Below are positions 894-32,000 of a DNA stretch of 32,000 bases, piece after piece. Each line of letters begins with the position of its first letter. Positions within the stretch are counted from its first letter, which is position 1. This DNA comes from Synechococcus sp. A15-28 (GTDB lineage: Bacteria > Cyanobacteriota > Cyanobacteriia > PCC-6307 > Cyanobiaceae), in contig NZ_CP047931.1 of the NCBI RefSeq assembly GCF_014280175.1, positions 390,001 through 422,000 of the forward strand. The letters run 5' to 3'. The notes below the pieces were generated by a model. It searched no databases and was not told the DNA's origin. It saw nothing but the letters and a program-made list of their open reading frames with translations. Position numbers and translations under genes: made by a program.

Positions 894-912
894 ATGATCA
901 GGAGCTGACTAA

Positions 913-4058: not shown

Positions 4059-4074
4059 TGGACTTGTACGGTAC

Positions 4075-4278: not shown

Positions 4279-4381
4279 CAGTGAATCAAGAGTGTCGTCT
4301 GTTAGGCGCTGACAGCTGTTGTTGCTGCATCTGTCCTACCAGAAGTTGGATAAATTCAAGAGTTAGGTTGGGATTGAGTGG

Positions 4382-5027: not shown

Positions 5028-5051
5028 GCCATCAGTGTCGCGTCAACCGCG

Positions 5052-5435: not shown

Positions 5436-5485
5436 GCAGACACCTGCCTAAATCCATGGAAGACTCAGGCACCGCCTGAGAGCCA

Positions 5486-5875: not shown

Positions 5876-5954
5876 GGGGGCTGGAGACGCTGCCTGATGA
5901 AATCGACTTACAGCACTGCAAGGAAATGCAGCAGAGGTGCGTACTGCGGGACTG

Positions 5955-6075
5955 CCCTGACGGCGTGCTGGGAAGGCTTTGGCGCTGGGTTAGTCGTTAG
6001 GTCTGCAGCGGGGAACACTTCAGGCAGTCACGTCTGACCAATGACCCAAGACACTCGCATTGCCCTGTTCCTACT
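5955..6075 (+). repeat. Composite intergenic repeat, copy 1 (unit R1 5955..5988 plus unit R2 6006..6075)
   Basis: R1 is ccctgacggcgtgctgggaaggctttggcgctgg and recurs at 6803..6836. R2 is cagcggggaacacttcaggcagtcacgtctgaccaatg... and recurs near-identically at 10321..10390. A diverged R2 copy is at 8620..8712. Confidence 0.8.
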
Positions 6076-6378
6076 GGCTGAACCTATTGCAGAACTGCAA
6101 GCCAACAACCCTGACACCTTCAAGCGGTGACTGTATCGCGGCATTCAAGACCTAGGAGAAGCTGCCGTGACTTAGATGCTGCTGGATTGGATTGACCTGT
6201 TCATCACACGAGTCGAGAGGGACAGGATGGTGGCTTGGCACCTGTGAGTGAGCCTTTGAATTTTCTTGGGAGACCAGCGCAGTTCTTTTTGACAGTCAGG
6301 TTCCATGTTTAATTGCACACAACTTGCTGTTCTCAAGTTCAGCTATGGCTACCTTAGGAAAAATTTTTCTACAGACCT

Positions 6379-6696
6379 TTGCAGCACTACCTCATCGTTT
6401 GGAACTTCCCTACCGTTGAAGGATCCTGGGAGTCATGCCCAGGTTTTGCCGATTACATCAATGCAGGAGCACCTGGCGACAACTTCGACGGATTTGAATT
6501 GAAGTACCGAGTATGTGAACCAGTCAGCGGCAGCGGTGTGGCAATCGCTGAAGCAAGCGATATCGGTAAAGTGTGGGCTCATCTTGGCCCTTGGATTAAG
6601 GGCTACGGAATAGAGTTTGACGTAAAAGCTGTCGTTTCTGATTCTCAGTTTGCTGCCATGTGGCCTGGCGTAGAAGCCGCTGCGGCTGTGGAATAA
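6379..6696 (+). CDS. DUF3303-like small protein
   Basis: TTG start. The overall pattern (VAIAEASDIGKVWAHLGPWIKGYGIEFDVKAVVSD) resembles the DUF3303 family. The gene is followed by a terminator. Confidence 0.55.
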   Translation: MQHYLIVWNFPTVEGSWESCPGFADYINAGAPGDNFDGFELKYRVCEPVSGSGVAIAEASDIGKVWAHLGPWIKGYGIEFDVKAVVSDSQFAAMWPGVEAAAAVE

Positions 6697-6740
6697 AGAG
6701 CCTCAGTCTCCAATCCATCTTCCGAGAAAACACTCACCAG

Positions 6741-17023: not shown

Positions 17024-18017
17024 TGTCAATCAACTGCTTTGTGTTTTGGTAGGATTTAAACCACTTCAAAGATGCGAAGGCGATCAAAGATGCTAGGCCT
17101 CCAAATAACAAGATAGAAACTAGACGTTGACGAGCCTTTTTGAACAGAATGGCTTGTTCTCTTTCAACGAGAAGTGCCATATTCGCTGCTGGAATATATT
17201 GATATGCGCCAACGACCGGCTTCTGCTCATGATTCAGGTACAAATAGGTGCCTTTGCGATTACTAAGGGCATTGGTAATCCCTTCACTTTTAAGCGCAGG
17301 ATATTCAGTGGCATTATTAGGGTTATAAATTTCTGTTGTGCGACTTAAGGATGTATACGCAATCGCCAATGTCCTTTCAGGAGGGTCTAGCTCGCGAACG
17401 TCTCCAGGAGTGAACATAGACTCATAAAGTGTTTTTGGATTGACGTCAACTGCGTAATAGCCTCGACGCTTATTTGTGTTATCGCGAATCGGAAATGCCA
17501 GTGTGGTTGTGGGGCGCCCTGAAAGTGGATCTTTGAAGAATCTCAGACTGCTATTAACTGACTTTTGGGGATCAATGTACGTCGTTGTATTTTGAACAGG
17601 TTGATAGCGTCCGACTTTTTTAATATCTGTAGAAAGGGAAAAAATGGCACCAGGAGTTAGTATGGAAATACTTTCCGCAGCAATATTTTGCTGGAATATT
17701 TTGCTGGTGTCTATGTTGCCTGTGAGTTTGGTTTGAGTATTGTTCGTACCTGGACGGAAGCGACGTTTGGATGATAGAACTTTGATAGTTTGATCTTGAA
17801 ATTCTGGATCTCCAAGGTGATTGATGATCGTTGATATTAAACTCTCTTTGGCGTTCTTAAATAAATCGGCACGAGACGTCAGCACATTTTTTTGAGCTTG
17901 ATAAGCCTCACGACCCAAGTTTTGAGTCTCACCATAGTATGTGATGAGTCCGATGGACCCCGTTATAGAAAGAGAAACGATGAGAATTTCCGTGCATGAA
18001 TAATTTCGCATTTTCAT
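17013..18017 (-). CDS. Stand-alone two-TM periplasmic sensor-like (Cache/CHASE-like) protein without a cytoplasmic output domain
   Basis: The N-terminal TM is ILIVSLSITGSIGLITYY, followed by about 290 aa of extracytoplasmic sequence ending ...KGTYLYLNHEQKPVVGAYQYIPAANMALLVERE (Cache-like end pattern). The C-terminal TM is LVSILLFGGLASLIAFASL, with only about 15 cytoplasmic residues. The ATG at 18017 overlaps the SBP stop as ATGA. Confidence 0.7.
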   Translation of the reverse strand: MKMRNYSCTEILIVSLSITGSIGLITYYGETQNLGREAYQAQKNVLTSRADLFKNAKESLISTIINHLGDPEFQDQTIKVLSSKRRFRPGTNNTQTKLTGNIDTSKIFQQNIAAESISILTPGAIFSLSTDIKKVGRYQPVQNTTTYIDPQKSVNSSLRFFKDPLSGRPTTTLAFPIRDNTNKRRGYYAVDVNPKTLYESMFTPGDVRELDPPERTLAIAYTSLSRTTEIYNPNNATEYPALKSEGITNALSNRKGTYLYLNHEQKPVVGAYQYIPAANMALLVEREQAILFKKARQRLVSILLFGGLASLIAFASLKWFKSYQNTKQLIDNES

Positions 18018-19390
18018 GACCGCTCCCACTTTTTGAAGATTGATTCAATGGAATCTATGGCGTTATCTACAGCGCGCTCAACTGGGATACCATTCTCGCA
18101 AACCTGTTGGATTGCCTGGGCCCAAATATTTTGTCGCCTCACTTCCGTGTATGCGGGATTATATATTTGATAGGCAAGCTTGTAGTTATTGACCGTTTCT
18201 CTTGAAGCCTGTATGTGGGTGTTTCGTAGTTCGTTCCAGAAAGGATTCTCGAGAATACTGATGGAAACTGGTAAGTACCTTCCCTGGGATCCTTCCACGT
18301 AACGAGAAAGATTTTCTGGCTTGATCAGGTGTCGTGCAAAAGACTTAGCTTCATTTATCTTTGCTCCATCAAAAATAAACATTTGTTTGACAGAAATATC
18401 TGTACGGACAGGTTCGCCGTCGAGTCCCTTCGGCCATCCAACAGAGGCTATTCTTTCATAATAAGCGACTTCGTCGGCTGTTTGAGACCCTGGAATTGAA
18501 AGTGTTGGATTAGCTGTCATTAACGATAGGCTGCTGAGAAAGTCGATATTGTTGTCTACATCTCCCCATTCAGTCGCTTTTTTCGAGACCCATCCCTTCT
18601 TATAAAAGCTTATATAATCTTTCATTGCAGCAATAATTTTACTTCTTTCATCTGCATCGCTCAACATGAGCTTGCCATCATCGCTAAGGATTTTCGCACC
18701 GTGTGCCTCAAGGAAAAAGTCAAATAGAATGTGGGTATCTGATGTTGAACTGGCCATGGGTAGGCCGATCCCCTTGATATCTACAAACCCAGCATCAATA
18801 GCTCTTTGCTGGTTATCCCCCCAGAATGTCCAGAACTCATTCCAAGTGTCGGGAATACTGATGTCTAATTCGGTATTATTCGCTTCCTGGAGAAGGTCTT
18901 TCCAGTAGTGAATGTATGCAGAGCTAACGGATAGTGGTACAGAGTAAGGGGAGCGAAGTCCAGAAGATTTATTGAGGAACGTAATGTTTTCAATGATGCC
19001 CGGGGAGTAATCGTCAATAAATTTGTTGATAACATCATCGGTTGGCACCACAAATCCCTTGTAGGCAAAAGTTGGACCATGACTGTCTCCCACGCTGTAG
19101 CCATACATCAAGTCTGGCTTAGGACCTCCATTCAAAATTTGTGTTGCTCGCTGTGAAATCTCTCCATCATTGAAAAAGACAAGGTCGACTTTTTTACCGC
19201 TTTCTTTCTCCCATTTCCTTGTAATGGCCTCGATGGCATCTGTTTCTTCAGGGTAATACCCCTCAGACCACCAAACCAGCAGATCTCGCTCAGTGGAATT
19301 GTCAGTTGCCACCGGATTTAGGCCTGTCATGCCACAACCACCCAGCATCAGGCTGAAGAGTAGTGAAGTAAGGGGAAGATGAAGTTTCAC
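18014..19390 (-). CDS. Extracellular solute-binding lipoprotein (ABC-type family 1, sugar-like) without a cognate permease or ATPase nearby
   Basis: The GTG start gives MKLHLPLTSLLFSLMLGGCG, with the lipobox LGGC. The length of about 458 aa and the sequence pattern (LLVWWSEGY...KKVDLVFFNDGE...) are typical of SBP_bac_1/8 proteins. Confidence 0.8.
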   Translation of the reverse strand: MKLHLPLTSLLFSLMLGGCGMTGLNPVATDNSTERDLLVWWSEGYYPEETDAIEAITRKWEKESGKKVDLVFFNDGEISQRATQILNGGPKPDLMYGYSVGDSHGPTFAYKGFVVPTDDVINKFIDDYSPGIIENITFLNKSSGLRSPYSVPLSVSSAYIHYWKDLLQEANNTELDISIPDTWNEFWTFWGDNQQRAIDAGFVDIKGIGLPMASSTSDTHILFDFFLEAHGAKILSDDGKLMLSDADERSKIIAAMKDYISFYKKGWVSKKATEWGDVDNNIDFLSSLSLMTANPTLSIPGSQTADEVAYYERIASVGWPKGLDGEPVRTDISVKQMFIFDGAKINEAKSFARHLIKPENLSRYVEGSQGRYLPVSISILENPFWNELRNTHIQASRETVNNYKLAYQIYNPAYTEVRRQNIWAQAIQQVCENGIPVERAVDNAIDSIESIFKKWERS

Positions 19391-19471: not shown

Positions 19472-20452
19472 TTACCAAGAGGTTAAGGCGATTACCCAGA
19501 TCGGAAGAGTGAAGATCAAAATGATATTGCTGATGATCAGGGATTGCACAATCAGGGCTCGATCTAGGTTGAAGTTTTCAGCCAAGACAAGCGTCGCAAA
19601 GGCGCAGGGCATTCCTGACTGAAGAACGAGAATCAACCTTTCTGGGCCCGCAAATCCAGTTGCAGTAAGTAATGCCCCTACCAGGATTGGCACGGCAATC
19701 ATCTTGATCAAGACAGCTTTCAAAGGCAGTTGGAATGAGCCGGAACCGCTGAGCTGTTCGATTCGCATTCCCATGGTGAGGAGTGCGAGCATGATTGAAG
19801 TCCAAGCGATAACGCTGAGGATGTTGCTCAGAAGATCTGGGATTTCAACCAGCTTCAGAAGAAGGCCTACGCCAAAAGCGATGAGCGATGGATTTTTATA
19901 GAGGAGTTTGCTTGTCCTGACGAGTGCGCTAAGAAAGCCATTGCTGTTATCACCACCATCCCCTCGAGTCGCAATCCAGGAGCCCAGTCCATAGCCACCT
20001 AAAATCGTCCCAAAAATATCGTATAAAACTGCGATGCCAAAGTAATTTGGGCCAAGCTGAGGTAGTAATAAGACGACTGGAAATCCAATATAACTTGTAT
20101 TACCGATATAACTGCTGAGCTGGAAGCTTCGTCGGGTATTCAATGAAATCGATTTTCTTGATCCCAGAACGTATGACGAAAAAAGCAGACCGAGGCCGAT
20201 GACCAAGCAAGCAGTGACTGGAGCTATCCAGGCATTTGCGCTTAATTCGGCGTTGCGAACGAAATTGGCAATTCCGATCGGGATGCCAACACGCAGTAGA
20301 AATTGTGCAAGGAAAGAAGGGATGCTGCGGCTGTACCGCTCTCCGGTGGCTCCTCCATAGGACACCAAGAGTTTGCTGATCAGAATTCCGCTGCCCACAG
20401 CTGCCACGATGGGCAGGTAGACAGAGGTGACAATGGAAGAGAGGTTGGTCAA
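19472..20452 (-). CDS. Auxin efflux carrier (AEC) family membrane transporter
   Basis: About 10 hydrophobic helices in two halves separated by a hydrophilic loop, with length and C-terminal pattern (VLQSGMPCAFATLVLAENFNLD) typical of Mem_trans. TTG start. Confidence 0.75.
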   Translation of the reverse strand: MTNLSSIVTSVYLPIVAAVGSGILISKLLVSYGGATGERYSRSIPSFLAQFLLRVGIPIGIANFVRNAELSANAWIAPVTACLVIGLGLLFSSYVLGSRKSISLNTRRSFQLSSYIGNTSYIGFPVVLLLPQLGPNYFGIAVLYDIFGTILGGYGLGSWIATRGDGGDNSNGFLSALVRTSKLLYKNPSLIAFGVGLLLKLVEIPDLLSNILSVIAWTSIMLALLTMGMRIEQLSGSGSFQLPLKAVLIKMIAVPILVGALLTATGFAGPERLILVLQSGMPCAFATLVLAENFNLDRALIVQSLIISNIILIFTLPIWVIALTSW

Positions 20453-20542: not shown

Positions 20543-21238
20543 TCAAGGGCGGACAAGCTGATCGATTGAAATTTCACCATAAAAAACCTTCAAGTCTTGT
20601 TCGTATCGCTGCAAGACAAGATTCTTCAGCCCTGAATCATGGAAGTATTGGCTGACATCTGTTCGGTCTTCTGCACGTCTACGGTTTTTTTGTGGAAGGT
20701 CCCCCAGCGAAGGCAGGCCTTCGCGCTGCAGTTGTTGTTGAAGGGCTTTCCAATCTTGATTCATGTGTTCAATTCTTCCGATGAATCCTGGGATAATTTG
20801 TTCGTCAAGGCAGAGGATTGATGTCTGAGGAAGTAAATGGATGTCGATCTCTTGATCAGGCGTGCTATTGACCCGCTCAAGAAACTGGGCAAATGGCATG
20901 TCGCGCCAGAGTCCCATCGCTTGCATGGGAGCGGGCACCTCGTCGAGTTCAAGGATTTTGTTGTTGTAAGCGGAAACCAGCCGGTCGAACGGATTTCGGA
21001 CAAAGCTGAAGCAGAAGTGCGTGCCACGACACATCCTTGCTGTGTGGTTGTTCACCATGCAGGTTTCCCCTTTGGTGGCTTTGCTCCAAAACGCATCCGA
21101 GGTGGTCCGCAATCCTTGCTCCGGGTTCTGCGTCAGTAGTCGGCTGAGACTGGCTTTGATCGAACTGTTGGCCACCTTCGGGACGCGTCCGTAAAGGAGA
21201 GGCAGGTCTCGGAACTGAATGAAGTGACGCTCGTTCAC
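20543..21238 (-). CDS. Carbohydrate sulfotransferase (Sulfotransfer_2-like), paralog b
   Basis: RVPKVANSSIKASL is a 5'-PSB-like element and FVRNPFDRLVSAYNNKI a 3'-PB-like element. The GTG start overlaps the upstream stop as GTGA. Paralog of 22074..22850. Confidence 0.8.
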   Translation of the reverse strand: MNERHFIQFRDLPLLYGRVPKVANSSIKASLSRLLTQNPEQGLRTTSDAFWSKATKGETCMVNNHTARMCRGTHFCFSFVRNPFDRLVSAYNNKILELDEVPAPMQAMGLWRDMPFAQFLERVNSTPDQEIDIHLLPQTSILCLDEQIIPGFIGRIEHMNQDWKALQQQLQREGLPSLGDLPQKNRRRAEDRTDVSQYFHDSGLKNLVLQRYEQDLKVFYGEISIDQLVRP

Positions 21239-22077
21239 AGCTCCCAGTAGTCGATGGGTTTACCCATGTAGGCCAGCATCTGCTCGCTGTCTGGCCGAAT
21301 GCGACGCAGAACACGGCGCTTCAACCCGTCTCTCCACTGTGGCTTTTCGACGTGACCGCGACCTTTCTCGCCGGCTTGATTTTCCCTGGGCAGCTGTCCA
21401 TTGCTATCCAGAAGCCTTTTAACCCTCGGCTTGACGCCAAGAAACCGCATCATCTGGCGTAAGGAACGCCGGGGTGAGCTCAGCAGATCTTCAAATGTCA
21501 TGCAGTGAATCTGCTCATCTGGATAGAAACGACGGAATGCCGATAGACGTTGGTAGTACATCGAACAACCCACGATGAGTCGACGCAGGTGACGGTCGCG
21601 CATGAGTTCGCTGAAATCAGCGCACTCCGGATTTCGCCCGCGGTAGTGACGCCACTGGGACACGATCCGATCCAAAGGATGGCGAACGATGTAAATCAGT
21701 TTGAGATCCGGAAGGTAGCGATGCATCAATTCCGGCGTGCTGCTGAAGGAATGCAAGCCACTGGCATACATCGTGCTGCCTTCCCCCCTGAGAAGGTGAT
21801 TCTTGCCTTTGTTGAATCTTGATGCATACCAATCCCAACCCTTTTTGTAGTAACGGCCGAAGAACTTTGGCTCTTTGGGTTTACTGATGAAAACGTCTGG
21901 ATGCTGCGGAAGGATGGTGGTCAGGGTTGTTGTGGCGGATTTAGCGGCGCCAATGATGATGAAGTTGGGCAAGGAGTCGCGATATTGATCAACGATCTCA
22001 GCATGTTGGCCGCGAATGCCCTTGCGGATCAATTTCGTTGAACACAGATCGGATGGCATGACGAGGATGTTGGTCAA
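21235..22077 (-). CDS. Sulfotransferase (Sulfotransfer_1/3-like, PAPS-dependent)
   Basis: FIIIGAAKSATTTL is the 5'-PSB loop and VRHPLDRIVSQW the 3'-PB motif. The TTG at 22077 overlaps the upstream stop as TTGA. ATG at 22059 is an alternative start. Confidence 0.8.
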   Translation of the reverse strand: MTNILVMPSDLCSTKLIRKGIRGQHAEIVDQYRDSLPNFIIIGAAKSATTTLTTILPQHPDVFISKPKEPKFFGRYYKKGWDWYASRFNKGKNHLLRGEGSTMYASGLHSFSSTPELMHRYLPDLKLIYIVRHPLDRIVSQWRHYRGRNPECADFSELMRDRHLRRLIVGCSMYYQRLSAFRRFYPDEQIHCMTFEDLLSSPRRSLRQMMRFLGVKPRVKRLLDSNGQLPRENQAGEKGRGHVEKPQWRDGLKRRVLRRIRPDSEQMLAYMGKPIDYWEL

Positions 22078-22850
22078 GCGTTGACTTGGGCTCTCTGGCG
22101 TTTCTTGGCTTTGGCCACACCCCGTTGCAAAGGGGGCAATTTGTTTAATGGCTGGCCATCGAGAAGCGTGTCAATGCTGTAGTCGCCATAGAAGCGATTG
22201 AGATCCTGCTGGTATCGCTCGATCACCATGTCAATCAGGGCTATGGAATGGAAGAGAACACGAATGTCGCTGCGCCCTTCACGACGCACATTCTTCTGCG
22301 GTATCGCACCCAGCGTTGGCAGGCCTTCCAGCTTCATTCGGCATCGTAACCGACGCCAATGGTCGGTCATGTGCTCCATTCGGCCGACGAATTTTGGCAC
22401 AAGCTTGTTGCCCGCAAGCAGCATATCGGCTTGCGGACGCACATGATTATCGATTAGTTCTGGATCTGCCTTGCAGACAATTTCGATGAATTGGTCAAAG
22501 GCCATGCCGTGATGCAGTCCCATTTTTTTCATGGGCAATGGCACATCGTCGATTTCCAGAATCTTGTTGTTGTAAGCGGCAACGATTCGGTCGAAAGGAT
22601 TGCGGACGAAGCTGAAACTGAAGTGGCTTCCGCGAAGACGTCTGGCTTGTTGAGGTGTGACGAGCTGAGTTTCACCATTGGTGTTTTCGCGCCAAAAACG
22701 GTCGGATGTGGTCTTGATTCCGCCGGTGGGCTTTTGATTCAGAAGTTTGCATAGCGTGGCCTTGATGGAGGAGTTGGCCACCTTGGGAACACGCCCGTAC
22801 AGAAGCGGGATGTCACGGAACAGGATGAAGTGTCGAGGTGATTTGCTCAT
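22074..22850 (-). CDS. Carbohydrate sulfotransferase (Sulfotransfer_2-like), paralog a
   Basis: The internal ATG at 22850 (MSKSPRHFILFRDIPLLYGRVPKVANSSIKATL) overlaps the neuB-fusion stop as ATGA. FVRNPFDRIVAAYNNKI is present. Confidence 0.8.
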   Translation of the reverse strand: MSKSPRHFILFRDIPLLYGRVPKVANSSIKATLCKLLNQKPTGGIKTTSDRFWRENTNGETQLVTPQQARRLRGSHFSFSFVRNPFDRIVAAYNNKILEIDDVPLPMKKMGLHHGMAFDQFIEIVCKADPELIDNHVRPQADMLLAGNKLVPKFVGRMEHMTDHWRRLRCRMKLEGLPTLGAIPQKNVRREGRSDIRVLFHSIALIDMVIERYQQDLNRFYGDYSIDTLLDGQPLNKLPPLQRGVAKAKKRQRAQVNA

Positions 22851-25111
22851 GCCCTCGCTGCAGCTTCCAGGCGTTCCAACGCCAGCCATGCCGCTTCGCC
22901 GCCATTTTTGTGCCCTTGCCAGATCTCGGGGATAAACGATGCCTTTGGGCAGTGTTGGTCGATCTGTTCGAACAACTGCACCCAATCAATGTCTCCATCC
23001 AAAATCTGCAGGCCCTCGCCATCCACATCCTTGGCATCCGCCAGATGCAGGTGAGCTGTGAAGGGGAGGATCTGATCGAGGAACTGACGAAACGGAATGT
23101 GGAGATGGTTGCAAGCCAGTTTTGAGTGGGAGACATCCAGGCAGACCCGCATGTCCTGCTCTTCACAGAACTGCCGGATGAAATCCGTGTCCACAAACAG
23201 GTTGTGGAAGCGTTGCCCGCCGAAGTGCCAGGGGAAGGGGGGCATCGTCTGGGGAATGATCTCCACCTCGCCTGCGGTGTTGATCTTCTTCAGGCTTGTA
23301 ATCAGTCGCTCCCGCAGCGGTTTCCGTTCGCTGCGGTTGAGGTGATGGTGTTCGGAAAAACCGCCGACGTTGGTCACCAGCAACACCGGGTCTGAGCACT
23401 GGAAGCGATTTCTCAGGTCCCGCGAAATGTCGATCACCCGCTGCAGTTCTGCAATGGAGTGATTGCGATAGCTGGAATCCTCCGTGCAGAGGTCCAGAGT
23501 GTGGTCTCCCGCGAACAATTCGGGGGCATGAATCACCAGCCCAATGTTCTGCCGAACCGGTAGGACTTGATTGAGGTCAACCTCCAGATCCTTGTAACTG
23601 AGGTGAATCTCCACCAGATCCAGATTACTCACCTCGGAAAACACCTTGATGTCGTGGTACCGGACAGGTAAACCAAACGGCTGGTTGAACTGATACCTGC
23701 GCGGGGTGGCCGCAGGTGTTTCCAGATCGGATGGGAAGAACACCTCCCCTTGGCTCTTGGCCACCGGCAGGCGACGACCGATCAGATCCTTGAGCCGGTT
23801 GGGTTGCAGACCCTGGCCTGGGCTCTGGATGCGCACCATCGCTTCGGTGATCTCTGTTCCGGCTGGTACATCGCAGGCCGCCACAAGGCTCTTGGCCAAC
23901 ACCTCACGGTTCATCATTTCGCCCTGGCTGATGCTGCGCTCTCCGCCCTGGCCCATGGACTCCTCCACGCGGCGGATGCCCTGCATCATCTGAGCGAATT
24001 CATCCGGCAGCAGGCTCACCTTGTGATCGTTGCCTTCCATGCCGCGATCCACGGTGATGTGTTTCTCGATCACCGCCGCCCCCATGGCGACCGCCGCAAT
24101 CGGCACCTCAATTCCTCGTTCGTGACCGGAATAGCCCACGGGAGCATCGGCCAGTTCCCGCAGCCGCTCCAGATAGCGCAGGTTCACGTCCTTGAACGGC
24201 GTGGGATAAGTGGAGTTGCAGTGCAGCAGAACGTAGTTCGCCCCTTCCTGCTGTAGGTGGCGAATGCCAGAGCGGATTTCCAGTTCGCTGGCCATGCCGG
24301 TGGAGCAGATCAGCGGTTTCCCCGTCGCGGCCAATTGGCTGATCAGGGCGTGGTTGGTGAAATCGGCGGAGGCCACCTTGAAGCCCTCCATGCCCCAGCC
24401 ATTCAATTTCTCCAGACTGGTTTCATCCCAGGGGGTGCAGAGCGGCACCAGACCCTTGGACGCTGCGTAGTCAAAACAGCGGAATAACTCCTCGTCGCTC
24501 AGCTGGAAGCGCTCCAGCAGATCCAGGGTGTACTGGGTCCCCAGATCGGAGGCCATGTCATTGCTGTCGCCAGCATTGCTGTACAGATTGGACATGTCCC
24601 GCATCTGGAACTTGGCGCAGTCAGCGCCGGCGGCATGGGCGGCATCGATCAGCTCAAGGGCGATGTTGATGTCGCCGTTGTGGTTGTTGCCAATTTCGGC
24701 GATCACGAAGCTCGGTTCGCCGTCTCCGATGCGACGGCTGCCCAGTTGCAGGCCATCGGTGGCGGGCAGGGCCACCGCCACGATGCGGCCGTGGCTGTCC
24801 AGCAGCGGCAGGGCGATGATGCGCGAGGTCAGCAGACCAGCCAATTCCGCGGGAGCTGTTCCCTCCGCAGCACTGCGGCAATCGGGGTTCATCGCCGCCG
24901 TCACAGGACGGTTCAGATCGATGTCACCGCAACTGGCGATCCAGCGCCGGAAATCGCCATCGGTGAGAACACCCTGCAGGATCCCGGATTCCGAGACCAC
25001 AAAAATCAACCGCGATTGGTTGGCGGTGATTTTGCTCAGGGCAGAAAGAATCGTGTCCTCGGCAAAAACAACGAACTGGGTGAAGTTCCTCTCGATCTGG
25101 ATGCCCTTCAC
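22847..25111 (-). CDS. neuB: Fusion protein: CBS pair, N-acetylneuraminate (nonulosonate) synthase NeuB, SAF domain and xylose-isomerase-like TIM barrel
   Basis: The CBS element is ILQGVLTDGDFRRW...GRIVAVA. The NeuB signature is PSFVIAEIGNNHNGDINIALELIDAAHAAGADCAKFQ ... GYSGHE. A SAF-like segment is VAACDVPAGTEITEAMV. The C-terminal roughly 270 aa (IHLSYKD...VIHAPE...LDVSHSKLA...HLHLADA) looks like a sugar-phosphate isomerase/epimerase TIM barrel. GTG start. Confidence 0.85.
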   Translation of the reverse strand: MKGIQIERNFTQFVVFAEDTILSALSKITANQSRLIFVVSESGILQGVLTDGDFRRWIASCGDIDLNRPVTAAMNPDCRSAAEGTAPAELAGLLTSRIIALPLLDSHGRIVAVALPATDGLQLGSRRIGDGEPSFVIAEIGNNHNGDINIALELIDAAHAAGADCAKFQMRDMSNLYSNAGDSNDMASDLGTQYTLDLLERFQLSDEELFRCFDYAASKGLVPLCTPWDETSLEKLNGWGMEGFKVASADFTNHALISQLAATGKPLICSTGMASELEIRSGIRHLQQEGANYVLLHCNSTYPTPFKDVNLRYLERLRELADAPVGYSGHERGIEVPIAAVAMGAAVIEKHITVDRGMEGNDHKVSLLPDEFAQMMQGIRRVEESMGQGGERSISQGEMMNREVLAKSLVAACDVPAGTEITEAMVRIQSPGQGLQPNRLKDLIGRRLPVAKSQGEVFFPSDLETPAATPRRYQFNQPFGLPVRYHDIKVFSEVSNLDLVEIHLSYKDLEVDLNQVLPVRQNIGLVIHAPELFAGDHTLDLCTEDSSYRNHSIAELQRVIDISRDLRNRFQCSDPVLLVTNVGGFSEHHHLNRSERKPLRERLITSLKKINTAGEVEIIPQTMPPFPWHFGGQRFHNLFVDTDFIRQFCEEQDMRVCLDVSHSKLACNHLHIPFRQFLDQILPFTAHLHLADAKDVDGEGLQILDGDIDWVQLFEQIDQHCPKASFIPEIWQGHKNGGEAAWLALERLEAAARA

Positions 25112-25149
25112 AGTTCGCCTCGCAGGTGCCTAAGCAGAACCTGGAGACA

Positions 25150-26463
25150 CTACCCCACGTTCCTGTAGGTGATGCTCAGAAAAAGGCGCCTGATGATCCG
25201 GTTGCGTGTCTGAACAGCGCCCAATCTGCGGGCCACATTGCGATGGCTGGGTCGCATCAGGGTCCCAAGTTGCAACAGGCTTTCTGCTTCTTTCCAGTTC
25301 CTCTCTTGAATAGCACGTTCTGCATCGCGACGTAGCTGGGTGAAGCTGAGATTGGCGTTACTCAGATAGCCGGATTTTGCTTGGAGGCGATCCGGAGGGC
25401 AGGCACGCAGTTGCAGCAGAGCCTCGATCAATCGATCCGGCTCAAGCTTGGTGCCGTAGCCCATCCATGCCAGCCAGTCGGGATCCGGTTGTGGAAGCTC
25501 CTCGTCCAGAACGTCGAGATCCTCCATGGCATCCAGAGGTCTCCAGACCCCCGATCCGGCGAACACATGGCTGCCGTTGCTGGGATTGATCCCGAAGTCG
25601 GCCATCGCCAGGGGCCGGCAGCCGAAATCGAGAGCATCGAAGAAGGCGGTGGAGGAGATGGTGGCCATCAACCGGGCCTGACGCAGCAGGACCGGTAAGG
25701 GGCGGTAATCCAGCTTCAGGTTCACCGGGGCATGGCCAAGGGTCTGTTTCAGGGTGGTACTGATGTGGTCATCGATGCTGTGAAAGGTTTCCTCTCCCGG
25801 GGCGATTCGCGGCTTGATCAACACCTCCCAGTTCGGAGAGCGTCGGGCCAGATCCGCCAGGATCCGAACCATCTCGGCGCGATCGACCGCTGTTGAGGGC
25901 ATCACCACCTGTTCAGCGAAGATCAGCTGCTTGCGGCGCTGGTCACGTCCCTTGGGGTGCTGATCAGGGGCTGTGTTGCGGTGCAAACCGGTCAGAACCG
26001 CGCGCTGATCAGCAAATGGCGTGCCTTCCAGCATGCGTTCCAGGGCGTCACGGTCCCGTGGACCACTGAGGCCGATCAGGTCGTACCCCAGGCGCCAGCT
26101 GACGCCCTCGACGAACTTTTCCAGCACAACACCGTTGAATCCGCAGAAGAGCAAGGGCCTCTCGTTGCTGGGGAGCAATCCCAAGGCCAGGCGGAAATCG
26201 CTGATCTTGCTGCCGGTGAGGTAAACCCCGATGGCATCGAATTGGCGCAGCTTGTGGTGAGTCAGCAACTGCCCCATGTCCAGTCGCCAAAGCTCACCGA
26301 GGGCAGCGGCGCGCGTCAGAATTGCCTCAGGCGTTCCCTCCCTTGGGATGGCATTGATTGTGACCTGAACGTTGCGTTCTGAAGGGAAGCGGCACAACGC
26401 TTCACAGGCCAACAGTTGGCTGTCGCTGTCGCCGATCAGCAGCAGTTTGAACGGTTGATTCAT
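25150..26463 (-). CDS. Uncharacterised GT-B/Capsule_synth-like protein, tandem paralog 1
   Basis: Homologous to the two upstream genes, for example LLRQARLMATISSTAFFDALDFGCRPLAMADFG versus LLRQCGCAITVSSTAALEAMALGISTRIVGDLG. The ATG overlaps the upstream stop as ATGA. Confidence 0.7.
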   Translation of the reverse strand: MNQPFKLLLIGDSDSQLLACEALCRFPSERNVQVTINAIPREGTPEAILTRAAALGELWRLDMGQLLTHHKLRQFDAIGVYLTGSKISDFRLALGLLPSNERPLLFCGFNGVVLEKFVEGVSWRLGYDLIGLSGPRDRDALERMLEGTPFADQRAVLTGLHRNTAPDQHPKGRDQRRKQLIFAEQVVMPSTAVDRAEMVRILADLARRSPNWEVLIKPRIAPGEETFHSIDDHISTTLKQTLGHAPVNLKLDYRPLPVLLRQARLMATISSTAFFDALDFGCRPLAMADFGINPSNGSHVFAGSGVWRPLDAMEDLDVLDEELPQPDPDWLAWMGYGTKLEPDRLIEALLQLRACPPDRLQAKSGYLSNANLSFTQLRRDAERAIQERNWKEAESLLQLGTLMRPSHRNVARRLGAVQTRNRIIRRLFLSITYRNVG

Positions 26464-27515
26464 CGGATCAGCGCCTCCAGGCGGCGGATCAGGCGCTTCG
26501 CCCCGTCATGCACCCCCCAGCCCGTGGACTGAAGCCAGAATGCGTTCACCGGGGGCAACTCCAGCAGCTGATCCAGCCGGTCGATGGCCTGCAATCGATG
26601 CATGCAGCCGCTGCCGAAGAACGCGGTGGTGCCTTGGTCGGTGTGAATGCCGTAGTCACCGATCAACAGGGTAGGTCGCCCCCAGGCCATGGCGGCCAGG
26701 GTCCAGGGTGAGCTGACGCTGAGGCAGGCGCTGCAGCTGGCCAGTTGGCTTAACAGCTGACCTGGCGCACCGAACACCAGGTTGTCGGGGAAGGACCAGT
26801 CGTCGGGTTCGAATTTGGCGATCCAGGGCTGGCCACGCTCCCAGGACTGGTCGCGTTGGATGACGATGGACCAGTCCGGCGAGGTTTCGGCCCAACGGAT
26901 CAGTTGCCTGAGGAGCTGTGCCTTGGCTCCAACCTGGATGGGAATGCTCTCCTGCGCCAAAGCGAGCAGCGTGTAAGGCGGTTTTGGTGTGCCGCCGCTC
27001 AGGGCCCCGAGAGGGGGACGTTCTGGAAGGAACCACAGCCCCATGGACTCGATCTCTGGAGTCCCAGAGGTTGTTGGCCAAAACTGCGTGATCGCTTCGA
27101 GCTCCCGTCGTTGACGATCCCCTGGCACCACCAGGAGGTCACAGCAGTGGCGATCACTGAGCTCTTGCACCAGCTGGTCGCCAAGGGACGCTTGCAGGGG
27201 CCCGCTGAACACCACTGCCGGGGGTTCCCCACGTTGGCGGGCGAGCTCGCGGTGGGCATGGGTGAAGCGCTGCAAGTAGTCGCTGCGATGGATGAATACC
27301 CCCACGGCGCTGGCGGAGTTCAGCAGTTCATGCCCCAGCAGATCCATTAGGGCTAAAGGGATCTGGGGGGTCACGGCTGGCAGCGGACTGTCTCGAAGTG
27401 AGGACAGCGCTGGACCAACGGTCAGACAGGCATGACCGCCCTGCCGTAGCTGCTGCGCCAACAGCTGGCAGGCGAAAGCGCTGCGGTCGTCATCACTGAC
27501 CAAAAGGATCGTCAT
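26460..27515 (-). CDS. Uncharacterised GT-B/Capsule_synth-like protein, tandem paralog 2
   Basis: The internal ATG at 27515 (MTILLVSDDDRS...) overlaps the upstream stop as ATGA. The conserved SACLSVSSPWTLAAMAWGRPTLLIGDYG block is present. Confidence 0.7.
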   Translation of the reverse strand: MTILLVSDDDRSAFACQLLAQQLRQGGHACLTVGPALSSLRDSPLPAVTPQIPLALMDLLGHELLNSASAVGVFIHRSDYLQRFTHAHRELARQRGEPPAVVFSGPLQASLGDQLVQELSDRHCCDLLVVPGDRQRRELEAITQFWPTTSGTPEIESMGLWFLPERPPLGALSGGTPKPPYTLLALAQESIPIQVGAKAQLLRQLIRWAETSPDWSIVIQRDQSWERGQPWIAKFEPDDWSFPDNLVFGAPGQLLSQLASCSACLSVSSPWTLAAMAWGRPTLLIGDYGIHTDQGTTAFFGSGCMHRLQAIDRLDQLLELPPVNAFWLQSTGWGVHDGAKRLIRRLEALIR

Positions 27516-28819
27516 CGCTCCCGCAACCACCTGGACAACCAACCGAAGCCCACCAGCCCGTCGCGGAGGCGGCGTAGAGCGGTACGGGTTTTGTGCCGTT
27601 TGCGCTGACTGGAGCGCGCCCCGGCGCTGCTCAGCATGCGTCGGCCACCATGGCGAAGGGCGTAGGTCTGCCACTGGCGACTACCCCAGCTGCCTGGACC
27701 CAGGCCCTCGGTGGGCAACGGGGAACGCTCCTGATGGAGTCGCTCCAACAGGGCGGTGAGGAAGGTTTCGCGGCCCTGGGGCTGGAGGCCACTGCGTTGA
27801 AGCCATTCCACCCTGTGGCTTGGGGTGAACGGATCACGGGTGATAGAGGCAAAGTCCGCCACGGCACCCGAATCGGCGAAAAAGTGATTACCAAGGGTCT
27901 CGGTGACGCCGAGATCGCCAACGATGCGGGTACTGATGCCCAGGGCCATGGCTTCAAGGGCTGCGGTGGAGGACACGGTGATGGCGCAGCCGCACTGCCG
28001 TAGCAGGCGGGTGGCTGGTTTGAAGCTGAGCTGCAAGTTGGGCACCGTTTCGCTCATGCGTTCGATCACGCCGGCCATCTCACCGTGGCGCCGGTGCAAG
28101 GTGCTTTCGATGCTGGAGGTGCGCGGCTTGAAAATCACCGGATGATCAGGCCAGGCTTCCGCCAGGGCCTTGAGCTGCTTGCAGATGTAGCGCCGTTGCA
28201 GCGGGTGGGCAGGTATCGAGGGCTGCTCGAAGAACACGATCGACGGTTGGTCCGGTGCGGCTCGATGGGGGTCGGCATTCCAGAGCAAAGGCAGGCCCGT
28301 CACCACAGCGTTGTCGCTGGACAGCCCCAAGGCATGCCGGCCGAGCTGATAGGTGCTGAGGTCCTGTTCACTGTTGAGGCAAAGAAGATCGGCGCCGGAA
28401 CGGTCCAGCATTCCCTCGAGGGCAAAGCGAAACAGGATCCCCGGATAGGCGCTGACCAGAACAGGCCGATCCGTGCGGCCACTCCATTCCTTGGCGAGCA
28501 TCAAAAGTGCATCACGGCTGCGCAGGCCGTCCAACCCCAGAATCAGCACATCCACATCGCCGGCCATGGCGGCCGTCAGGCTTCGGAAGTCACCCCAAGC
28601 ACCCTTTTTCACCGCGGTGCGGCGGTCGGTGCGGTGGATTTCCAGCCTCTGGCGGCGAGACAGGGCCCGGTTCGAAACCTGCAACAGATGCAATGTGGTT
28701 TCGGCGCCCTCTTTGCGGCAGGCGGCAAGCAGGGTCATAGCCACCTTGCCGAAGGAATCGAAGCAGGCGACGGCTGCCACTTTTCGGCCAGAAAGGCGCT
28801 TGTCGGCAGCGGGCGCCAT
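27512..28819 (-). CDS. Uncharacterised GT-B/Capsule_synth-like protein, tandem paralog 3
   Basis: ATG at 28819 is preceded by GGAG and lies 27 nt after the neuA stop. The GTG at 28879 from the track would overlap neuA by 34 nt. Contains HPVIFKPRTSS... and ITVSSTAALEAMALG. Confidence 0.7.
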   Translation of the reverse strand: MAPAADKRLSGRKVAAVACFDSFGKVAMTLLAACRKEGAETTLHLLQVSNRALSRRQRLEIHRTDRRTAVKKGAWGDFRSLTAAMAGDVDVLILGLDGLRSRDALLMLAKEWSGRTDRPVLVSAYPGILFRFALEGMLDRSGADLLCLNSEQDLSTYQLGRHALGLSSDNAVVTGLPLLWNADPHRAAPDQPSIVFFEQPSIPAHPLQRRYICKQLKALAEAWPDHPVIFKPRTSSIESTLHRRHGEMAGVIERMSETVPNLQLSFKPATRLLRQCGCAITVSSTAALEAMALGISTRIVGDLGVTETLGNHFFADSGAVADFASITRDPFTPSHRVEWLQRSGLQPQGRETFLTALLERLHQERSPLPTEGLGPGSWGSRQWQTYALRHGGRRMLSSAGARSSQRKRHKTRTALRRLRDGLVGFGWLSRWLRER

Positions 28820-28845
28820 CGTCGGGCTCCGGGATTCCGGCAAAA

Positions 28846-29526
28846 CTAACCGGGGGTGAGAGCTGCAAGGCTGCGACACAGGGCCAGATCAGCCGGTGTG
28901 TCGATCTCCGGCCCCGAGTCCTCTATCACCACCGGTTGCCAGGGGGCACAGAAGCGGCTGCCTTCGGCGCGGAAACAGTCAATGCTCATGGCGTAGATCG
29001 CACCGGTTTCAAGAAAGGCTGGCTCCAGGTCCTGCCGGCGCTGGCGCGGTTGCTGGGGGTCGTGGTTGATCCCGCAGCCGTCATGGCGCCAGAGGAAGCC
29101 ATGCCAAGGGGCCACCGCAAAGCTGCTGTTGATGCCCGGGGTCGCCAGAGCCGCCAACACCTTGTCGATCTGTGCCCCGGTGGTGAAGGGGGAGGTGCAC
29201 TGCAGGAACACCAGCTGCTGGGGGAGTGCTCCCTGCTGTTCCAGAGTCTCCAGGGCATGGAGAAGGGCTGATTCGGAGCTGGCGGTGTCTTCAGCGATGG
29301 CTGCCGGACGGCGTACCACCTCGGCCCCATGGGTCCGGGCCTCCTCGGCGATGGCGTCAGCATCGGTGCTGACCACCACCCGCTCCACCCTGCGGCTGGC
29401 CAGGGCCGCCTGCACGCAGCGCGCTACCAGGGAGAAACCACCAACCATCTGCAGGTTCTTGCCAGGAATGCCCTTGGAGCCGCCCCGCGCTGGAATCAAA
29501 GCCAGGGCTCCAGGGGACGCGGTCAT
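28846..29526 (-). CDS. neuA: CMP-N-acylneuraminate (nonulosonate) cytidylyltransferase
   Basis: The internal ATG at 29526 gives MTASPGALALIPARGGSKGIPGKN, the CTP_transf_3 P-loop-type motif. The length of about 226 aa is typical. The upstream in-frame Pro/Ala-rich extension is an artefact of GC-rich DNA. Confidence 0.85.
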   Translation of the reverse strand: MTASPGALALIPARGGSKGIPGKNLQMVGGFSLVARCVQAALASRRVERVVVSTDADAIAEEARTHGAEVVRRPAAIAEDTASSESALLHALETLEQQGALPQQLVFLQCTSPFTTGAQIDKVLAALATPGINSSFAVAPWHGFLWRHDGCGINHDPQQPRQRRQDLEPAFLETGAIYAMSIDCFRAEGSRFCAPWQPVVIEDSGPEIDTPADLALCRSLAALTPG

Positions 29527-29558
29527 CGGAGAGGATTTAGTTCGTTCCCTCCTACCCG

Positions 29559-31544
29559 ATGATTCAGCGCTTCGGGGTGCCGGAGACCGGTCTGCTGGCT
29601 CACCGGACCGTGCCGGCGTTGCTGGCTCCGGCCCAGTTGCTGCGCGGACGTCGCAGGGATGTGGAGGCGTTGCTGGCCTGGGGGCGTCGACCCAGTGCCC
29701 AGCGGGTGGAGCGACTGGGGCGTCGTTGGCAGCTGCCGGTGTGGCATCTGGAGGATGGTCTGTTGCGATCATTGGCCAAGGGCCGCCAGCATCCGCCGCT
29801 GGCGCTGTTGGTGGATGACCTGGGGGTCCACTTCGATGCCAGCCAGCCCAGCCGGATGGAGCAGCGGATCCAGCGACCGCTGACCCCTGCACAACACAGC
29901 CGTGCCTGTGAACTTCAGCAGCGGTGGTGCGCTCAGCGGTTGAGCAAGCTCAACCCAGCCCGAGAATCACCGGCTCCAGCCGAGCCGTTTGTGCTGGTGG
30001 TGGACCAGTCCGCCGGAGACCTGTCCATCGGCCTTGGGCAGGCCGGGCCGGAGAGCTTCCGGCGCATGTTGCAGGAGGCGCTGCGGGATCAGACGGACTG
30101 TCTGGTGGTGGTGAAGGTGCACCCGGATGTGATCCGGGGCCGCGCCCGGGGCCATTTCCGCCGTCAGGATCTGCAGCACCCGCGCATCCGCCTCTGCGCT
30201 GACGGATTGCACCCTGCCGCCCTGTTAGAGCAGGCCCAGGCGGTGTATGTGGTGACCTCCCAGATGGGGTTTGAGGCGCTGTTGTGGGGACGGACCGTCC
30301 ACTGCTTCGGCATGCCTTTTTATGCCGGGTGGGGACTCACCGTGGATCGTTTGCCGGCTCCGGCCCGTCGGGGAGCGTCGGTGCCGTTGGCGGCGGTGGT
30401 GCATGCGGCGCTGGTGGAGGGCACCCGCTGCGTGGACCCCCATCGGCATCAACCCTGTCAGATCGAGACGCTGATGGACGCCATCGGCCTGCAACGTCGG
30501 CAGCAGGGGGCGGATCCCCTGCGGGTGCAGGCCTTTGGCTTCACTCCATGGAAGCAACGCAGCCTCAAGCGCTTTCTGGCCGGCAGTGAGCTGCGCTTTC
30601 GCCTGCCGCGGGCGCTGCCGGGGCCGCGGGCGGAGGCCGTGGCGGTGTGGGGCCGGCGGGCTCGACCGCGTCTGCTGGCGACGGCGCGCCGTCGGGGGCT
30701 GCCGCTGCTGCATGTGGAGGACGGTTTCCTGCGCTCGGTGGGCCTGGGGGCCGATCTGATCGACCCCATCTCCTGGGTGGTGGACCGCCGCGGCATGTAT
30801 TACGACGCCACGGAGGCCAGCGATCTGGAGCAGCGGCTGGCCACAGGAATCTGGAGTGAGCCGCAGTTGCAGCGGGCCGAGGCCTTGCGCCAGCAGCTGG
30901 TGGCGCAGGCCATCACCAAATACAACCTCCCAGGGGGCGGATGGCAGCGCCCCGACGCTGCCAGGCGGGTGGTGCTGGTGGTGGGGCAGGTGGAAAGCGA
31001 CGCTTCCATCCGCTATGGCGCTCCGGGGCACTCCAGCAACCTGGCACTGCTGCAGGCGGTGCGTGCGGCGGAACCGGAAGCGTTCCTGGTGTACAAACCC
31101 CATCCCGACGTGGTGGCGGGTCTCTGCCGCTCCGGTGATGGGGAGCAGCGGGCGGCCCAGGTATGCGACTGCTTGCTGCGCGATGGCTCGATCCATGCCC
31201 TGTTTGAGCAGGTGGATGCCCTGCATGTGCTCACCTCCCTGGCAGGGTTTGAGGCGCTGTTGCGGGGAGTGGAGGTGCATTGCTGGGGACTGCCCTTTTA
31301 TGCGGGTTGGGGGCTGACCCAGGATCGGTTGTCCTCGCCCCGGCGGGGCCGGTCGCTGCCTTTGGCGGCGTTGGTGCATGCCGCCTTGATTGATTACCCC
31401 CGCTACGTCAGCCGCCGCAGCGGTTGGTTCATCACTCCAGAGCAAGCCATTGAGGAGCTAGTGGCATGGCGGGATGCACCTCCAGCCCGCCGCACCCTGG
31501 TGCAGGCCCTGTTCCGACACTGGGGGCGTCTGTTCAATCGTTAG
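29559..31544 (+). CDS. kpsC: KpsC-like capsule polysaccharide protein (two Capsule_synth modules; beta-Kdo transferase family)
   Basis: The architecture is duplicated. The N half has HLEDGLLRS ... VVVKVHPDV ... VTSQMGFEALLWGRTVHCFGMPFYAGWGLT. The C half has HVEDGFLRS ... LVYKPHPDV ... LTSLAGFEALLRGVEVHCWGLPFYAGWGLT. The length of 661 aa is typical of KpsC. Confidence 0.85.
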   Translation: MIQRFGVPETGLLAHRTVPALLAPAQLLRGRRRDVEALLAWGRRPSAQRVERLGRRWQLPVWHLEDGLLRSLAKGRQHPPLALLVDDLGVHFDASQPSRMEQRIQRPLTPAQHSRACELQQRWCAQRLSKLNPARESPAPAEPFVLVVDQSAGDLSIGLGQAGPESFRRMLQEALRDQTDCLVVVKVHPDVIRGRARGHFRRQDLQHPRIRLCADGLHPAALLEQAQAVYVVTSQMGFEALLWGRTVHCFGMPFYAGWGLTVDRLPAPARRGASVPLAAVVHAALVEGTRCVDPHRHQPCQIETLMDAIGLQRRQQGADPLRVQAFGFTPWKQRSLKRFLAGSELRFRLPRALPGPRAEAVAVWGRRARPRLLATARRRGLPLLHVEDGFLRSVGLGADLIDPISWVVDRRGMYYDATEASDLEQRLATGIWSEPQLQRAEALRQQLVAQAITKYNLPGGGWQRPDAARRVVLVVGQVESDASIRYGAPGHSSNLALLQAVRAAEPEAFLVYKPHPDVVAGLCRSGDGEQRAAQVCDCLLRDGSIHALFEQVDALHVLTSLAGFEALLRGVEVHCWGLPFYAGWGLTQDRLSSPRRGRSLPLAALVHAALIDYPRYVSRRSGWFITPEQAIEELVAWRDAPPARRTLVQALFRHWGRLFNR

Positions 31545-31758
31545 ATGTTGTACTTAGTGCGACTATTTATAACGAATTTTTATAGGGTCTATTAGTTAGT
31601 TGATCGTCGACAAGGTTTTCTTCTTCTGCTTGTGGTGCTCTTTTGTTGTGAATTGTTGGCGTCGGGGTGTCTCGCGTCATTCAGATTTGCGGAAATGTCT
31701 GTCAATGTTGCTGCTTTAGGCGTGGCGAATGGCTAGAGGGGATATGCATCGAGATTGT

Positions 31759-31944
31759 TTAGTTGGTGCCAGAGAAATTTCTTTCAAGGAATCTGCGGAA
31801 TAATTTCCACTCTTCTTCTGTGAAAAAGGTGTGGCATTTGATGGCAAGATCAAGGCCACGTTCATTTAGTCTGGGGTTTGGGTTTTTGTTGCTGATTTTG
31901 AGTCTTGGGTCAGTGGATAGATTTTTGGCTTGTTCTGGTAACAT
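31759..31944 (-). CDS. Hypothetical protein (61 aa)
   Basis: ATG ORF in the AT-rich segment that begins right after kpsC. No motif recognised. Confidence 0.3.
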   Translation of the reverse strand: MLPEQAKNLSTDPRLKISNKNPNPRLNERGLDLAIKCHTFFTEEEWKLFRRFLERNFSGTN

Positions 31945-32000
31945 TGCATTAAGTAAGTTCCTAAAATACTGTTGTGGCTGTTGGTTATTGCTTACAAGCT

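Follow-up and report, generated by a model that had tools for sequence, protein, structure and literature searches.

The 32,000-nucleotide window of Synechococcus sp. A15-28 analyzed here (contig NZ_CP047931.1, positions 390,001 to 422,000; all coordinates below are counted from its first letter) contains three tandem genes on its minus strand, between neuA and neuB. In the order of transcription, we call their products C (27512..28819, 435 amino acids, ATG start with MAPAADK), B (26460..27515, 351 amino acids, ATG start with MTILLVS), and A (25150..26463, 437 amino acids). C ends in a strongly basic helical tail and A in a TPR-like basic extension. B is a divergent, tail-less relative from which most of the donor-site residues are gone. 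An earlier reading of this stretch from its letters alone (the sequence-only reading) had described three tandem open reading frames of these lengths in this position, and their coordinates, strand, and lengths hold. Independent gene calls on metagenome contigs with identical proteins give 226 (neuA), 435, 351, and 437 amino acids. In the sequence, each junction is an ATGA in which the stop codon of one gene overlaps the start codon of the next (27512..27515 for C and B, 26460..26463 for B and A, both on the minus strand). A, B, and C are therefore translationally coupled within one operon that extends from neuA to the sulfotransferase genes.

The operon begins with neuA (28846..29526, minus strand), which encodes a 226-residue synthetase of cytidine monophosphate (CMP)-nonulosonate that matches CTP_transf_3 at 1.4e-21. 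Its best NCBIfam match is PseF (1e-34, under the model cut-off), and the KdsB models match much more weakly. On the other side of A lies a 754-residue NeuB fusion (22847..25111, minus strand), in which Pfam recognizes CBS, NeuB, and SAF domains and a xylose-isomerase-like TIM barrel (AP_endonuc_2). It scores 313 bits with the NCBIfam model NeuB_NnaB and 230 bits with PseI, both under the cut-off. Three tandem sulfotransferase genes follow in the same orientation (20543..22985, minus strand), assigned to Sulfotransfer_2 (22074-22985), Sulfotransfer_1/_3 (21235-22077), and Sulfotransfer_2 (20543-21238). Divergent from neuA on the plus strand is kpsC (29559..31544), which encodes a two-module Capsule_synth protein (PF05159, 5.4e-78, 4 matched stretches). 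The start codons of neuA and kpsC point apart with 32 bp between them (29526-29559), and a metagenome contig has the same layout. With so short a gap, each promoter must be located within the coding region of the opposing gene, unless the true starts are elsewhere. According to a Pfam scan, neuA is the only sugar-activation gene of the operon, which contains no gene for a UDP- or GDP-sugar or a CDP-alditol, and kpsC encodes the only glycosyltransferase candidate besides A, B, and C. The same scan found neither neuC nor an AGE epimerase gene in the operon.

All three proteins belong to Pfam family PF20471, "Putative glycosyltransferase (DUF6716)", which they match over nearly the full model with 171.5 bits (3.2e-50) for A, 72.1 bits (5.4e-20) for B, and 205.3 bits (1.6e-60) for C, against a gathering threshold of 27 bits. 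All 47 diverse relatives that we scanned match it as well, and NCBI already names the orthologues "DUF6716 putative glycosyltransferase". They can thus be placed in a named family, which the sequence-only reading had not managed by eye. The Pfam search proposed at the time did return a confident family labeled as a putative glycosyltransferase, although one that is catalogued and uncharacterized. With 961 clusters at 50% identity (exhaustive profile search, E<=1e-3), the family is of medium size. No NCBIfam model matches A, B, or C. When PDB sequences were searched with C, A, and the profile of the 47 family members, all matches were insignificant, the best being CalG4 (GT1, E 0.078), which falls in a generic C-terminal motif of the glycosyltransferase-B (GT-B) fold. 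A full-text literature search found no paper on DUF6716 or PF20471, no solved structure was found, and nothing was found in the literature on Synechococcus with nonulosonic acid, kpsC, or neuB that concerns this locus. No homologue was found in phage genomes.

The mutual homology claimed for A, B, and C is far above chance by BLASTP (E-values of 1e-24 for A and C, 2e-13 for A and B, 2e-9 for B and C), by comparison of orthologue-group profiles (probabilities of 99.8%, 99.9%, and 97.8%, with A against C and B at 99.8-99.9%), and by the shared PF20471 match. The collinear blocks on which the claim had been based need some qualification: the quoted strings are all present, but most blocks are common to just two of the three proteins. 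The (F)xEQ and V(I/L)(I/F)KPR blocks occur in A and C only, and B reads LALAQ and IVIQRDQ. The xxVSS...AMAxG pattern fits C and B, and A reads TISSTAFFDALDFG.

Structure models were made of C and B; A is linked to their fold by its profile homology to both. The AlphaFold2 model of C, based on a 41-sequence alignment (predicted local distance difference test (pLDDT) 86, predicted template-modeling score (pTM) 0.83), consists of two alpha/beta domains followed by a helical tail, and the AlphaFold2 model of B (pLDDT 91.5, pTM 0.90) has a GT-B fold. The pair of Rossmann-like domains expected for a nucleotide-sugar enzyme is thus predicted for both proteins, in the GT-B arrangement. Foldseek searches against the PDB gave more than 220 matches at E<=1e-3 each for C and B. 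Those listed are all GT-B enzymes and include UDP-N-acetylglucosamine (UDP-GlcNAc) 2-epimerases, GT1 natural-product transferases, PimA, BshA, MshA, MurG, and HepE. For C, the matches to GT-B enzymes and UDP-GlcNAc 2-epimerases reach E ~1e-9. The Foldseek comparison suggested by the sequence-only reading thus recovered the GT-B topology, but no sialyltransferase appeared among the top 50 matches for C or B.

The nearest family is that of KpsC. We built profiles of the KpsC modules from the window KpsC and 39 orthologues and compared them with the DUF6716 family profile by hhalign. The N-module aligned with a probability of 84% (E 7e-6, score 49) and the C-module with 52%; none of 11 controls, shuffled or reversed, exceeded a score of 20.6. 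The aligned region is the C-terminal Rossmann domain of DUF6716, which corresponds to the CMP-binding domain of KpsC; the N-terminal domain does not align. A weak Pfam signal points in the same direction. A matches Capsule_synth (PF05159) with 20.6 bits against a cut-off of 20, over residues 185-279 only, and many A orthologues carry a precomputed Capsule_synth match; B and C have none. Among the 47 diverse members, Capsule_synth matches weakly in 5 and is the sole recurrent secondary match besides TPR tails. [quoted passage not shown]

The alignment pairs Q185 of DUF6716 (A numbering here and below) with the Gln of the KpsC QxxxD motif, K217-P218 with K-x-H-P, S270/S271 with T-S, E-A-L with E-A-L, and G.H.F.GSG with GMPFYAGWG. 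Both catalytic motifs of KpsC are lost. The His of the HP motif falls in a 2-residue deletion, with K-P-R opposite K-x-H-P and a site that is never His. The Asp of QxxxD lies within a 4-residue gap, where DUF6716 reads QxxxP, with the Gln kept in 141 of 142 family representatives. In KpsC, the His protonates the CMP phosphate and the Asp is the nucleophile (PMC10148158). Since both are absent, the chemistry of DUF6716 would not be a KpsC-type double displacement via those residues. An earlier impression, that the layout parallels that of KpsC and yet belongs to a different family, is therefore borne out, with statistical support for homology of the C-terminal domain. The KpsC/KpsS group (PF05159: GT107, together with WbbB of GT99, KpsS1 of GT118, and KrkA of GT140, retaining CMP-Kdo or CMP-pseudaminic acid transferases) resembles DUF6716 in the CMP domain, the type of locus, and the CMP-ulosonate context. 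In contrast, the beta-Kdo transferases have a strongly modified GT-B fold with a helical subdomain (PMC10148158, PMC12887879), and DUF6716 is predicted to be a canonical GT-B protein.

Across the 142 representatives, R124, D128, Q185, P189, N248, S270, S271, D289, G291, and W330 are near-invariant, and D14-S15, N133, D137, R195, K217, R219, E224, T226, H228, T272, and E/D276 are strongly conserved. The K-P-R element, K217-P218-R219 in A (25807..25815, minus strand) and K231-P232-R233 in C (28121..28129, minus strand), follows the second strand of the C-terminal domain in C. It is 100% conserved in C and A orthologues; in the wider set, the Lys is kept in 124/142 and the Arg in 133/142.

The bacterial sialyl- and polysialyltransferases of GT38, GT52, and GT80 share with DUF6716 the GT-B fold, the context of CMP-activated nonulosonic acids, and a gene position flanked by neuA and neuB, which is also seen in polysialic acid loci. 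They have an HP motif and a D/E-D/E-G motif (PMC2169525). The HP motif is absent from DUF6716, with K-P-R in its place, and none of the 47 members scanned matches a Pfam sialyltransferase family. A and C carry an x-E-G element in the N-terminal domain, which reads E-E-G in some relatives. We considered whether this element is a counterpart of the D/E-D/E-G motif, but it does not hold as a family feature: its acidic residue is found in just 92 of 142 representatives and is missing from B.

Alignments of the orthologue groups (116 C, 113 B, and 117 A sequences) show that the paralogues cannot be treated as three equivalents. In the A and C groups alike, conservation is close to 100% for D-S, E-G, D137, E-Q, K-P-R, E.T.H, S-S-T, and the acid of the helix. 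In B, D137 is replaced by Gln, the Lys of K-P-R by Gln with P-R unconserved, the Thr by Pro, and the helix acid by Ala. The E.T.H loop is shortened, its His position deleted and its Glu and Thr positions unconserved. The losses of B thus include K217/P/R219, E224/T226/H228, D14/S15, D137, E184, and E276; in 80-95% of the 142 representatives, K217, R219, the E.T.H loop, D14/S15, D137, and the Glu of the helix are retained. Of the operon's genes, B also evolves fastest, with an identity of 28-76% across the same genomes, compared with 47-78% for A, 55-86% for C (49 genomes), and 69-93% for NeuB. The last 75 residues contain 17 Lys and Arg versus 4 Asp and Glu in C (net +13) and 15 versus 5 in A (net +10), and B has no basic tail. 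The A tail has a TPR-like segment, and A-type relatives carry TPR_16/TPR_19 tails. The named B-type relatives are picocyanobacterial without exception and form a degenerate sub-branch. Of the three candidate transferases originally proposed, A and C retain the family residues, but B has lost most of those in the donor domain. Judged by its sequence, B is probably a degenerate, non-catalytic partner and probably not a working transferase of the A and C kind. Since the genes are translationally coupled, it may act in a complex with A or C.

The locus is widely conserved. In a genome scan with protein C alone as the query, the matches were mostly picocyanobacterial, with 49 loci, about 40 of them long enough to read the gene order. 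The order kpsC (divergent), neuA, C, B, A, NeuB fusion, and sulfotransferases is kept in about 40 picocyanobacterial genomes, comprising marine Synechococcus, Cyanobium, Vulcanococcus, Aphanothece, and freshwater "Prochlorococcaceae". The sulfotransferase genes are syntenic in most of the related genomes, where kpsC also stays beside neuA. In the closest related genome (Synechococcus sp. AG-670-A05; L013, 5228-7354), kpsC is followed by genes for a KpsS-acyltransferase fusion, a ketoacyl synthase, a GNAT protein, and a Poly_export protein. This conserved surface-polysaccharide locus looks Kps-like (putatively ABC-transporter or "group 2" type) and is not a strain-specific island. Neither the window nor L013 yielded KpsM/T genes, which occur beside DUF6716 in other phyla. 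The 450 bases after kpsC in the window (31545-32000) show no similarity to the KpsS fusion of AG-670-A05 and have stops in all three plus-strand frames.

Outside the cyanobacteria, 11 of about 16 independent contexts have a CMP-sugar synthetase gene, a NeuB gene, or both no more than 10 kb away from DUF6716, often together with Kps-type ABC export genes. These 11 are Stappia, three metagenome contexts (L007, L010/L011, and the contig carrying P0305), a deltaproteobacterial metagenome-assembled genome (MAG), a Polyangiaceae MAG, S. meliloti, S. fredii, Marinovum, Pseudorhodobacter, and Maritalea. Stappia has two DUF6716 paralogues, one of them with a TPR tail, together with two NeuB genes, PseB/PseC-like genes, and KpsM/T. 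Two metagenome loci combine NeuB, a CMP-synthetase, and two DUF6716 genes with KpsD/E/M/T, KpsS, and a methyltransferase or sulfotransferase. The CMP-synthetase of L007 is fused to a HAD domain, judged from gene calls and a tblastn match, and the P0305 contig has an overlapping CMP-synthetase gene. On pSymB of S. meliloti and in S. fredii, a short NeuB, a CTP_transf_3-HAD protein, and DUF6716 follow RkpZ-like Capsule_synth genes, in a neighborhood that resembles the rkp-3 K-antigen region (PMC5429615; background on rkp-3 also in PMC4881576). The Marinovum, Pseudorhodobacter, and Maritalea loci are on plasmids. C-type and A-type (TPR-tailed) genes recur as pairs. The argument that adjacency to neuA makes A, B, and C users of the activated sugar is strengthened by this recurrence of NeuB, CMP-synthetase, and Kps genes across phyla, although donor and activity are deduced from fold, remote homology, and context only.

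A module of a short NeuB (~300 amino acids, no SAF), a ~390-residue CTP_transf_3 protein, and DUF6716 recurs in Sinorhizobium, Stappia, and MAGs (L064, 9712-13053; L063, 11712-15047; L005, 7877-11215; L010, 7931-11290). The ~390-residue protein has a HAD-phosphatase domain in S. fredii, which would imply a phosphorylated ulosonate intermediate. Sulfotransferase genes are also found near DUF6716 in a metagenome locus, on the Marinovum plasmid, and on another contig, which hints at sulfated acidic polysaccharides. Contigs L049 and L056 are deposited under the rhizobial MAG names Bradyrhizobium ivorense and Mesorhizobium carmichaelinearum and are of picocyanobacterial type or rich in DUF6716. L049 has full cyanobacterial synteny at 55-71% identity, so its bin is probably contaminated.

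We propose, as a fairly probable reading, that A and C act as GT-B transferases or polymerases that depend on CMP-nonulosonate and build a Kps-type sulfated capsule, with B as a degenerate partner. The analysis shows the family, the predicted fold, the remote homology of the CMP domain, the synteny, the residue patterns, and the coupling; donor and acceptor, the respective roles of A and C, the formation of a complex, and the stereochemical outcome are inferred. The NeuB fusion would make a nonulosonic acid, which NeuA would activate to the CMP-sugar. A and C may bind this donor in the C-terminal Rossmann domain through K-P-R, the E.T.H loop, the N-terminus of the S-S-T helix, and the helix Glu/Asp, and would transfer the sugar to an acceptor with a lipid anchor that KpsC/KpsS has primed. 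This would take place on the cytoplasmic side of the membrane, where the basic C-terminal helices of A and C could keep them. Probably, A and C divide the work, with one starting the chain or forming one linkage and the other extending it or forming a second. B, which keeps the fold and the most invariant residues of the core and has lost the likely nucleotide-binding set, would most likely serve A and C as a non-catalytic or acceptor-binding partner. The three downstream sulfotransferases could then modify the polymer.

A more ambitious version of this proposal, which we regard as possible and on the whole doubtful, is that DUF6716 constitutes a new CMP-nonulosonate transferase family at the CAZy level. 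Such a family would have a canonical GT-B fold and a CMP domain related to that of the aberrant beta-Kdo and pseudaminic acid transferases (GT99, GT107, GT118, and GT140), and would employ K-P-R and a mobile E.T.H loop where those enzymes employ HP and QxxxD. A, the pseudo-enzyme B, and C would then form a membrane hetero-complex that polymerizes a sulfated poly-nonulosonate capsule in marine and freshwater picocyanobacteria, a capsule shared throughout a phototroph lineage of global abundance.

A number of observations weigh against the proposed assignment. Literature and PDB searches found no assayed DUF6716 member. The likeness to KpsC is limited to ~116 columns of one domain at 84% probability and is reached by the diverse family profile alone; orthologue-group profiles and single-sequence KpsC comparisons give 0.5-8%. 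UDP-GlcNAc 2-epimerases are as frequent as glycosyltransferases among the best structural matches, and the top 50 Foldseek matches of C and B include no sialyltransferase, KpsC, WbbB, or KrkA structure. The absence of the last three fits the published view of the beta-Kdo transferases as strongly modified GT-B enzymes (PMC10148158, PMC12887879). The NCBIfam scores of NeuB and NeuA are both under the equivalog cut-offs and do not fix the identity of the sugar. About 5 of the ~16 non-cyanobacterial contexts have no nonulosonic acid gene nearby (L008/L009, L012, L056, L062, and the contig with P0370). They include an isolated gene in a metagenome lineage, a short Kps-export contig, a GT4-rich cluster, and an ABC-transporter/sulfotransferase cluster; L056 has three DUF6716 paralogues and no NeuA or NeuB match. 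Furthermore, S. meliloti and three marine alphaproteobacterial loci encode a GT42-type "alpha-2,3-sialyltransferase", which may be the actual nonulosonic acid transferase, so that DUF6716 need not be the sole such enzyme there. Finally, B still has R124, D128, Q185, P189, N248, the Ser pair, and D289, as well as D-x-G, GSG, and Trp, and may therefore be catalytic.

Several of these points would also suit GT-B capsule transferases that use another donor, either a hexose activated by UDP or GDP, for the backbone of a heteropolymer, or, as in TagF-type polymerases, a CDP-activated alditol phosphate. The nonulosonic acid would then be added by a KpsC/KpsS-like enzyme or one encoded elsewhere; KpsS-family enzymes are able to transfer pseudaminic acid (GT118, PMC12887879). 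The Foldseek neighbors use UDP- and TDP-sugars, the weak PDB profile matches are to GT1, and some DUF6716 contexts contain GT4, GT2, or GT8 genes and no nonulosonic acid genes, in addition to the alphaproteobacterial loci with a separate GT42 enzyme. However, neuA is the sole activation gene of the Synechococcus operon, no sequence relative recurs other than the CMP-dependent Capsule_synth, and the module of NeuB, CMP-synthetase-HAD, and DUF6716 is tightly conserved, often with overlapping genes. We therefore consider a different donor unlikely.

It is less likely still that A, B, and C are all active and differ in specificity, for example for three linkages or acceptors, with B binding its donor in a different manner. 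In favor of this explanation, B is intact in every picocyanobacterial locus examined, its GT-B model is very confident, and the most invariant residues of the family are retained. On the other hand, K217, R219, the E.T.H loop, D14/S15, D137, and the helix Glu are all lost, the protein evolves much faster than A or C, and the basic tail is missing.

The UDP-GlcNAc 2-epimerases (Epimerase_2, including NeuC/SiaA) give the best global superpositions, with template-modeling scores of 0.5-0.64 and E ~1e-9; they rank top for C and are prominent for B. Together with a weak Epimerase_2 (PF02350) match of C (11.5 bits, E 0.13; A and B have no match) and the missing epimerase gene of the operon, this could suggest that one or more of the proteins is a sugar-nucleotide 2-epimerase or a hydrolyzing epimerase (NeuC analogue) that supplies the hexosamine substrate of NeuB. 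We regard this as very improbable, since 11.5 bits is far under the cut-off of 30.6 and even a weak match occurs in only 2 of 47 family members, the Foldseek ranking cannot tell epimerases from GT-B transferases that share their fold, alphaproteobacterial loci have an AGE epimerase alongside DUF6716, and the genomic logic, the 2-3 paralogues per locus, and the membrane-type basic tails suit transferases better. Loci with a synthase and a HAD-phosphatase-CMP-synthetase also keep DUF6716, although by our reasoning an epimerase need not be expected there. Because those alphaproteobacterial loci have an epimerase gene and the present operon lacks one, the TIM-barrel domain of the NeuB fusion may supply the NeuB substrate; a PDB sequence search found no relative of this C-terminal domain.

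The suggestion that DUF6716 proteins are glycosyltransferases is not new, since Pfam and NCBI already make it. What is new here is the cross-phylum link of the family to CMP-ulosonate genes and Kps export genes, the statistically supported homology of its C-terminal domain to Capsule_synth with both KpsC catalytic motifs lost, the recurring pairing of A-type and C-type genes, and the degenerate, picocyanobacteria-specific B paralogue. A, B, and C provide a directly testable candidate for the polymerase in a very abundant organism. If the assignment to CMP-nonulosonate transfer is correct, they would represent a class of transferase or polymerase for sialic-acid-type sugars that has not been assayed before and fill the missing polymerase slot of a polysaccharide locus conserved in essentially all Synechococcus/Cyanobium-type picocyanobacteria. 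The same slot would be filled in strain-specific rhizobial K-antigen regions and on roseobacter plasmids. The family could then show CMP-ulosonate transfer without the HP and QxxxD residues, and B could be a natural pseudo-glycosyltransferase subunit. On cells of such abundance, a capsule of acidic, sulfated nonulosonate would matter for phage adsorption, for grazing and aggregation, and for the dissolved organic matter of the sea. If the assignment fails, the genes are ordinary members of a catalogued domain of unknown function.

Beyond the capsule operon, the Mem_trans family transporter gene at 19472-20452 separates the sulfotransferase genes from a possible signaling cassette on the minus strand (14897-19390), which encodes an extracellular solute-binding protein, a weak Cache-like protein, and a 710-residue adenylate/guanylate cyclase. 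The stretch from 800 to 6700 has a guanine-cytosine content of 0.43-0.55 and many short open reading frames, none of at least 150 amino acids; the capsule operon side (23000-31000) is at 0.58-0.70. This low-GC stretch looks like a variable island near the conserved locus. Within it, a Glutamine-II riboswitch aptamer is found on the plus strand at 3132-3192 (Rfam RF01704, 66.5 bits versus a gathering score of 33), directly upstream of, and overlapping the start of, a 70-residue open reading frame at 3175-3387.

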